DNA of 7,808 nt from positions 1-7,808 of the IMG/VR virus record IMGVR_UViG_2617270940_000002; one strand, given 5' to 3'. The notes beneath the pieces were generated by a model that saw only the letters and a program-made list of their open reading frames with translations, searched no databases and was not told the origin of the DNA. The translations under genes were made by a program, and so were the position numbers. The DNA comes from a virus (taxonomy: Duplodnaviria > Heunggongvirae > Uroviricota > Caudoviricetes). Below are positions 1-472 of this stretch, in pieces (the first letter of the stretch is position 1; each line of letters begins with the position of its first letter).

Positions 1-436
1 CTCGCGCATACAACCGGGCAGCGATGTGATTGTCTGCGCTGAAATGGACGAACAGTGGGGCTACGTAGGTGCTAAATCACGTCAGCGCTGGCTGTTTTAC
101 GCGTATGACAGGCTCCGGAAGACGGTTGTGGCGCACGTCTTCGGTGAACGCACTCTGGCCACACTGGAGCGTCTTCTGAGCCTGCTGTCGGCCTTTGACG
201 TGGTGATATGGATGACGGATGGCTGGCCGCTGTATGAATCCCGCCTGAAGGGAAAGCTGCACGTAATCAGCAAGCGTTACACTCAGCGCATTGAGCGACA
301 TAATCTGAATCTGAGACAACATCTGGCAAGGCTGGGACGGAAGTCACTGTCGTTCTCAAAATCGGTGGAGCTGCATGACAAAGTCATCGGGCATTATCTG
401 AACATAAAACACTATCAGTAAGTTGGAGTCATTACC
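1..436 (+). mobile_element. IS1-family insertion sequence, partial copy (3' ~436 bp, cut by window edge) with terminal inverted repeat at inner end (~414-436)
   Basis: Frame 2-421 translates to the C-terminal part of IS1 InsB; the element ends ...CAGTAAGTTGGAGTCATTACC at 436, the reverse complement of the IS1 terminal IR GGTAATGACTCCAACTTACTG; an exact inverted duplicate lies at 7373-7808. Confidence 0.9.
2..421 (+). CDS. insB: IS1 transposase InsB, C-terminal portion (5' end outside window)
   Basis: Translation ...[30 protein letters not shown]...[15 protein letters not shown] matches IS1 InsB; the frame stays open to the window start; stop at 419-421. Confidence 0.85.
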
Positions 437-472
437 GGCGACACCCGTTGTTAACTTATCCATGGATTTCAT
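437..472 (-). pseudogene. essD: pinholin (S21/EssD-family) 5' fragment, first 12 codons only, truncated by IS1 insertion
   Basis: Minus-strand ATG at 472-470 preceded by SD GAGGTGGGG; translation [12 protein letters not shown] carries the dual-start MKSM motif of the phage 21 S holin/EssD and runs directly into the IS1 end at 436; position matches essD next to nmpC in DLP12. Confidence 0.5.

Follow-up and report, generated by a model that had tools for sequence, protein, structure and literature searches.

Introduction

The closest described counterpart of the locus reported here is essD (b0554) of the cryptic prophage DLP12 in Escherichia coli K-12, a gene that corresponds to S of phage 434B and is homologous to the S21 pinholin gene of phage 21. 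In phage 434B, two products are annotated for the S gene, the S71 antiholin starting at Met1 and the S68 class II holin starting at Met4, each with its own ribosome-binding site, and the gene is followed by those for a SAR endolysin, an i-spanin and an o-spanin. The 71/68 dual-start arrangement has been described for S21 (PMC9636201), and for pore formation by S21, TMD2 has been reported to be both required and enough by itself (bioRxiv 10.1101/2021.04.20.440580). The lysis module of DLP12 has reportedly been kept and is reported to be used by the host: it has been linked to cell-wall maintenance and turnover and to the output of outer-membrane vesicles (PMC7918800). The same module has reportedly been lost in Shigella (PMC7918800), and a single deletion of essD in K-12 has a small reported effect.

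Here we describe a lambdoid prophage segment in which the reading frame of essD stops matching its intact counterparts after codon 12, at the exact end of an IS1 element. We consider it highly probable that, in the genome of an E. coli strain, IS1 transposed into the essD gene carried by a DLP12-like lambdoid prophage.

Results

The window is a DLP12-type prophage segment with IS1 at both ends

The DNA that we analysed (the window; 7,808 bp) is the exact reverse complement of an entire contig, JNPB01000136.1, from the short-read draft assembly GCA_000703445.1 of E. coli. A 436-nt stretch of IS1 stands at each end, the two stretches being inverted and 100% complementary (1-436 against 7373-7808), and the unique DNA between these arms amounts to 6,936 bp (437-7372). 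Because the contig ends inside IS1, the distal end of the element lies outside the window. An independently assembled Logan contig, SRR1186759_296 (4,697 bp, from run SRR1186759), corresponds to window positions 2702-7398, the last 26 nt of which belong to the right-hand IS1. An Rfam scan of the whole window returned no family at the gathering threshold.

The region 437-7372 is colinear in one piece with DLP12-type lambdoid prophages, at 99.5% identity. Its gene order is essD, a porin gene in the opposite orientation, quuD, ylcG, rusA, ybcO, ninE, ybcN, small ORFs, a gene for a P22AR-C protein, ybcK and ylcJ, and this is the order of a DLP12-type (qsr') region when compared with the annotation of K-12 and NCTC11121. 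Between ybcN and ybcK (4392-5533) lie an ORF of 118 aa that matches nothing in Pfam and a gene for a 107-aa protein with a P22AR C-terminal domain; K-12 DLP12 has ybcL and ybcM in place of these two. Full-length lambdoid prophages that possess genes for head and terminase are the nearest relatives of the segment; in relatives, rrrD and Rz/Rz1 come directly after essD. The median number of places matching the prophage block is 2 per E. coli genome.

Divergent from essD lies an nmpC/lc-type porin gene (1060-2142, plus strand). A first interpretation of the window, made from its letters without database searches (the sequence-only reading), had called this porin intact and had stated that essD follows nmpC in DLP12. 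Both points stand: the 360-aa product matches Pfam Porin_1 over the full profile (E=3.6e-152, 1-337/337), the identical protein is found widely, in about 7,500 index blocks, and the K-12 annotation gives the same order. In nine of the ten loci shown, a 71-aa Phage_holin_2_1 gene sits beside the porin, followed by a lysozyme gene and a Phage_lysis or Rz1 gene. The left-hand IS1, which ends 624 nt upstream of the porin gene, reads outward to it on the same strand.

The late antiterminator gene Q, quuD (2331-2714, minus strand), was identified by Pfam (Phage_antitermQ, E=4e-53) and by synteny, and in an intact prophage it lies upstream of essD in the direction of late transcription. Between the porin gene and essD, a consensus scan marked a strong terminator-like GC hairpin followed by a T-run (612-633, minus strand), which lies some 140 nt upstream of where essD starts. 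The hairpin falls within the conserved essD leader, in a stretch that is identical in the intact locus, and it may be a late-operon terminator that is read through by Q. The Logan assembly of SRR1186759 breaks at 2702, within quuD, where the NCBI contig continues through. This break inside the Q gene may reflect a second Q-like sequence and hence another lambdoid prophage, with lysis genes of its own, in this genome.

Further along, ybcK (5645-7171, minus strand) encodes the YbcK serine recombinase (KDV76340.1 / WP_032187816.1), and the organism given for these accessions is Escherichia coli. The exact YbcK sequence is on record only in JNPB01000136.1 and in one Logan run; its 90% cluster has 6,144 members.

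The start of essD is conserved through codon 12

On the minus strand, the Shine-Dalgarno region GAGGTGGGG (483-475) is intact and is followed by a TT spacer and an ATG at 472-470. It serves the S71 as well as the S68 start, and in the phage 434B record (OL657227.1) two ribosome-binding sites are annotated on the bases equivalent to 475-483. The essD' stub that begins at this ATG (437-472, minus strand) comprises codons 1-12, namely ATG AAA TCC ATG GAT AAG TTA ACA ACG GGT GTC GCC, and is identical to the intact locus at 36 of 36 nt. The dual start is kept (Met1-Lys2-Ser3-Met4), with Met1 at 472-470 and Met4 at 463-461, and the peptide encoded by the stub is the same as the first 12 residues of EssD from strain 120899 and from K-12 and of S71 from phage 434B. 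In a pairwise alignment with the intact locus of strain 120899 (L001), every column is identical through codon 12, and similarity collapses exactly at 436/437. Over window positions 437-1000, many complete E. coli genomes agree with the window at 100% identity, and in them the matching stretch carries the annotation 'essD: phage lysis protein EssD'.

The intact essD allele has 71 codons and matches the Pfam family PF04971 (Phage_holin_2_1, 'Bacteriophage P21 holin S') at E=2e-35 over residues 5-67. Its protein is 100% identical to K-12 EssD b0554 and to the S gene product of phage 434B.

A stub of 12 residues is too short for any profile search, and Pfam found no match, even at E<=10, to the 38-aa and 53-aa ORFs of this region, as would also be the case if the 12 codons formed an open frame by chance and did not begin a holin gene. 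We rejected this reading and regard its probability as practically nil: all 36 nt of the stub and at least 560 nt upstream are identical to loci in which the same ATG starts an annotated essD, and the start, the second start and the ribosome-binding sites are all annotated likewise in phage 434B.

The coding nucleotides and the leader are thus identical to those of intact loci, and synteny extends over 6.9 kb of flanking DNA at 99.5% identity. By nucleotide identity and synteny the stub is an essD orthologue; as a gene remnant and not a functional member of the holin family, it should be annotated as a pseudogene fragment. The window ORF holds residues 1-12 only and lacks the two TMDs of an S21-type class II holin; in the intact EssD, the hydropathy peak that corresponds to TMD2 lies at about residues 35-55, far past residue 12. 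Since all of TMD2, the pore-forming helix, and most of the weakly hydrophobic, SAR-like TMD1 are missing, this locus can yield neither an S68-type pinholin nor an S71-type antiholin, and on its sequence this essD copy is shown to be a null allele for both.

Read through the joint, the frame continues as an EssD'-IS1 fusion ORF of 38 aa (356-472, minus strand), in which 12 EssD residues are followed by 26 from the antisense strand of IS1, with the stop at 356. The exact 38-aa product is absent from the gene-position index, and we predict the fusion ORF to be non-functional.

essD abuts the right end of an uncommon IS1 variant

The DNA that abuts the stub is the right-hand part of IS1 (1-436, plus strand), corresponding to IS1 positions 333-768 and containing the InsB C-terminal coding sequence, which ends at 421. 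The ORF at 26-421 matches PF03400 (DDE_Tnp_IS1; Pfam) at E=5.8e-76 over profile positions 2-131/131. The right terminal inverted repeat occupies 414-436 on the plus strand (ATCAGTAAGTTGGAGTCATTACC; reverse complement GGTAATGACTCCAACTTACTGAT), and base 436 directly abuts essD codon 12. This terminal inverted repeat of about 23 bp, ending ...GGAGTCATTACC, is mirrored at 7373-7395, and the ends of complete IS1 copies elsewhere are the same terminal repeats.

A complete relative of the element is available in E. coli EC476. It is a 768-bp IS1 flanked by a 9-bp target duplication (L017, 269-1036), and its right 436 nt are 100% identical to the arm at 1-436. Against an IS1A-type copy, the arm is 92.7% identical; the complete EC476 copy has 32 mismatches to IS1A in its right 436 nt and just 6 in its left 332 nt, the latter part being about 98% identical to IS1A. 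By this distribution of mismatches, the IS1 found here is a mosaic variant. It is an uncommon one, matched at 99% identity or more over the arm in 85 of 9,480 matching E. coli records, and several genomes with exact arm matches have 36-40+ IS1 places each.

These results bear out what had been claimed for the junction wherever the window allows a check. The sequence-only reading had placed a Shine-Dalgarno sequence, an ATG at 472, a frame and an IS1 breakpoint here, and on reading the sequence all of these coordinates are exact. Its naming of the element as IS1 agrees with the terminal inverted repeat, the InsB C-terminus and the match to the complete EC476 copy; its assignment of the interrupted gene to essD of the S21-type pinholin family is upheld by the PF04971 match of the intact allele and by that allele's identity to the K-12 and 434B proteins. 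The further claim, that the lysis cassette is likely inactivated, holds for the pinholin/antiholin gene and is shown for that gene only. SAR endolysins are able to cause slow lysis without a holin. The sequence-only reading also took the fragment to be consistent with a cryptic prophage; its nearest relatives are the full-length prophages named above.

The IS1/essD joint is very unlikely to be an assembly artefact

The left joint rests on one short-read draft assembly, and the Logan assembly covers the right joint only. The contig has repeats at both ends, and the Logan contig (2702-7398) does not reach the left joint, all of which would suit an assembly chimera with an intact essD in the real genome. 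We nevertheless consider a chimera very unlikely. The joint coincides exactly with the final base of the IS1 terminal repeat, where a true transposition would put it and a random chimera would not, and the equivalent joint on the right was recovered base for base in an independent assembly. Moreover, the contig stops at IS1 position 333, in a stretch common to IS1A-type copies and 12 nt before the nearest variant-specific base. Such a stop inside IS1 resembles the repeat collapse of a short-read assembly and is typical of collapse, not of mis-joining.

We searched for the junctions elsewhere. With symmetric junction probes, neither IS1 joint was covered at 80% or more in any of 5,426 complete E. 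coli genomes. Pattern scans of viral, metagenome and species-representative genome collections gave zero matches to the observed joint, and in the same three collections there were zero matches to the predicted distal joint (IRL, 0-12 nt, then essD codon 13 onward). Both insertions thus appear private to this isolate.

A second IS1 copy at ylcJ and the route to the break

At the other end of the window, a second, inverted IS1 copy occupies 7373-7808 on the minus strand, its 436 nt being the exact reverse complement of 1-436. In window 7229-7395, as seen by comparison with the K-12 and NCTC11121 loci, the joint between its IRR and ylcJ falls directly behind nt 8 of the K-12-type gene (nt 1-8, ATGAGCCT) and lies 6 nt upstream of the ATG of a 45-aa YlcJ-family ORF. 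This joint is the same, base for base, in the Logan contig SRR1186759_296. The T-run of ylcJ is two bases longer here than in K-12. The two IS1 copies, 6.9 kb apart, bracket an intact porin-Q-rusA-ybcK block, and the draft assembly broke in both of them.

The presence of a second copy bears on how essD was broken. In the explanation that we favour, a simple insertion, IS1 would have entered at the boundary of essD codons 12 and 13, oriented so that the right inverted repeat faces the start of essD. Alternatively, the break may have come from an IS1-mediated rearrangement or deletion, which we regard as a possible but rather unlikely origin. The rearrangement could be a duplicative intramolecular transposition of one IS1 or a later homologous recombination between the two inverted copies that inverted the 6.9-kb block; by these inversion routes, codons 13-71 and the endolysin/spanin genes would now lie beyond the right-hand IS1, beside ylcJ. 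By another route, an adjacent deletion promoted by IS1 would have removed codons 13-71 together with the endolysin/spanin genes.

The arrangement of the arms agrees with a rearrangement in that the inner block ends on the right end of IS1 at both sides, and the two inverted copies agree at 100% in the 436 visible nt. Inverted identical copies are the geometry of a duplicative inversion, as derived from the standard replicative transposition model. The rarity of the variant among the 9,480 records is compatible with sister copies, and both joints are private to the strain. However, two independent simple insertions yield the same inner joints, and the identity of the arms perhaps means just that this strain has many copies of the variant; in genomes where the variant occurs, as many as 36-40+ IS1 places are counted. 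The gene order and orientation in the block, for their part, are those of intact prophages and are expected under either model. The outcome that separates the two is the distal joint: a simple insertion would give ...GGCAGCATCACC-GGTGTCGCC-TATGGCACC... tied via one IS1 to position 436. Under simple insertion and rearrangement alike, essD is broken.

One version of the rearrangement, in which the inverted IS1 pair are sister copies of one duplicative intramolecular transposition, seems to us improbable. If it were true, the 6.9-kb block with its porin, Q, RusA and YbcK recombinase genes would form a segment that is bounded by IS1, can invert and might be mobilised as Tn1681 is, and the body of essD with the endolysin/spanin genes would be found past the other IS1, not beside the stub. 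We also weighed a composite transposon as the main explanation and rejected it: the block stands in native prophage order and bears no sign of movement, and with both joints absent from the 5,426 complete genomes, the IS1-block-IS1 unit was found in no foreign context among them.

Predicted structure of the locus after a simple insertion

For the simple insertion, we built a model of the distal joint from the complete IS1 of EC476 plus a duplication of 9 bp. Codons 13-71 (TATGGCACCTCAGCAGGTAGTGCCGG) would then resume past the 768-bp element, after the duplication GGTGTCGCC (essD sense), and the distal joint would read, in the essD sense, ...AAGTTGGCAGCAT(C/T)ACC-GGTGTCGCC-TATGGCACC... The modelled joint has an in-frame TAA 15 nt inside IRL, ahead of codons 13-71, and the first in-frame start after it is a GTG at Val41, in the middle of TMD2. 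With this stop and with no in-frame start before Val41, the remnant would probably be silent.

An S21 68 truncation that starts at residue 10 has been reported to form pores still (bioRxiv 10.1101/2021.04.20.440580). Residue 10 of S68 is codon 13 of the 71-codon gene, the first codon beyond the predicted insertion; the remnant modelled here would nevertheless lack a translation start. As to the genes further downstream, the polar 768-bp IS1 would isolate those for the SAR endolysin and the spanins (rrrD, rzpD/rzoD), should they be present, from Q-dependent late transcription. IS1 is classically polar in both orientations.

Discussion

IS1, the S21/EssD family, the Q-nmpC-S block of DLP12 and decay by insertion sequences are all well known, and the finding is an ordinary case of IS-driven prophage decay. 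Its importance is small outside the annotation of this strain. As the DLP12 lysis module has been reported to affect vesiculation and cell-wall turnover, a mild envelope phenotype is conceivable, and a natural essD-null allele such as this one could slightly alter the vesiculation or envelope phenotypes of the isolate.

The window also holds a technical lesson for genome scanning, in that a whole contig was capped by collapsed IS1 repeats. For the DNA past an insertion sequence, the rest of the assembly or long reads are required.

Other insertions of IS1 offer one set of comparisons. In JNEC-KY204, IS1 lies in the signal sequence of the porin as a simple insertion with a 9-bp duplication, a target other than the one seen here. 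In EC476, the copy that is identical over the 436 visible nt lies, again with a 9-bp duplication, in the gene for the beta subunit of ribonucleotide reductase, which is also a different target. Tn1681 is an example of a composite transposon flanked by inverted IS1 copies, and the window resembles such an element in having two identical inverted IS1 copies around a 6.9-kb block of intact genes. Unlike a composite transposon, however, the block is colinear with its native prophage context, and neither of its joints was found in the 5,426 complete E. coli genomes.

The closest comparison is with K-12 DLP12 and phage 434B. The leader, the Shine-Dalgarno sequence, both starts and residues 1-12 are identical between these and the window, and K-12 DLP12 and the window also have like neighbours, running from quuD through an oppositely oriented nmpC-type porin gene to essD. 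They differ in that the window has IS1 sequence where K-12 EssD has its residues 13-71, a part that takes in the charged C-terminus and the whole of TMD2 along with most of TMD1. In K-12 DLP12 and in phage 434B, nmpC::IS5 is likewise a case, and a classic one of prophage decay, in which an insertion sequence breaks a gene of the same Q-porin-S block. There, in K-12, IS5 lies in the 3' end of the porin gene, so that the porin is broken and essD is intact; here, IS1 lies in the 5' end of the holin gene and the porin is intact. The locus thus adds one more decay route for DLP12-like prophages, a mirror image of that in K-12, in which the pinholin/antiholin timer is lost and the adjacent moron porin is intact.
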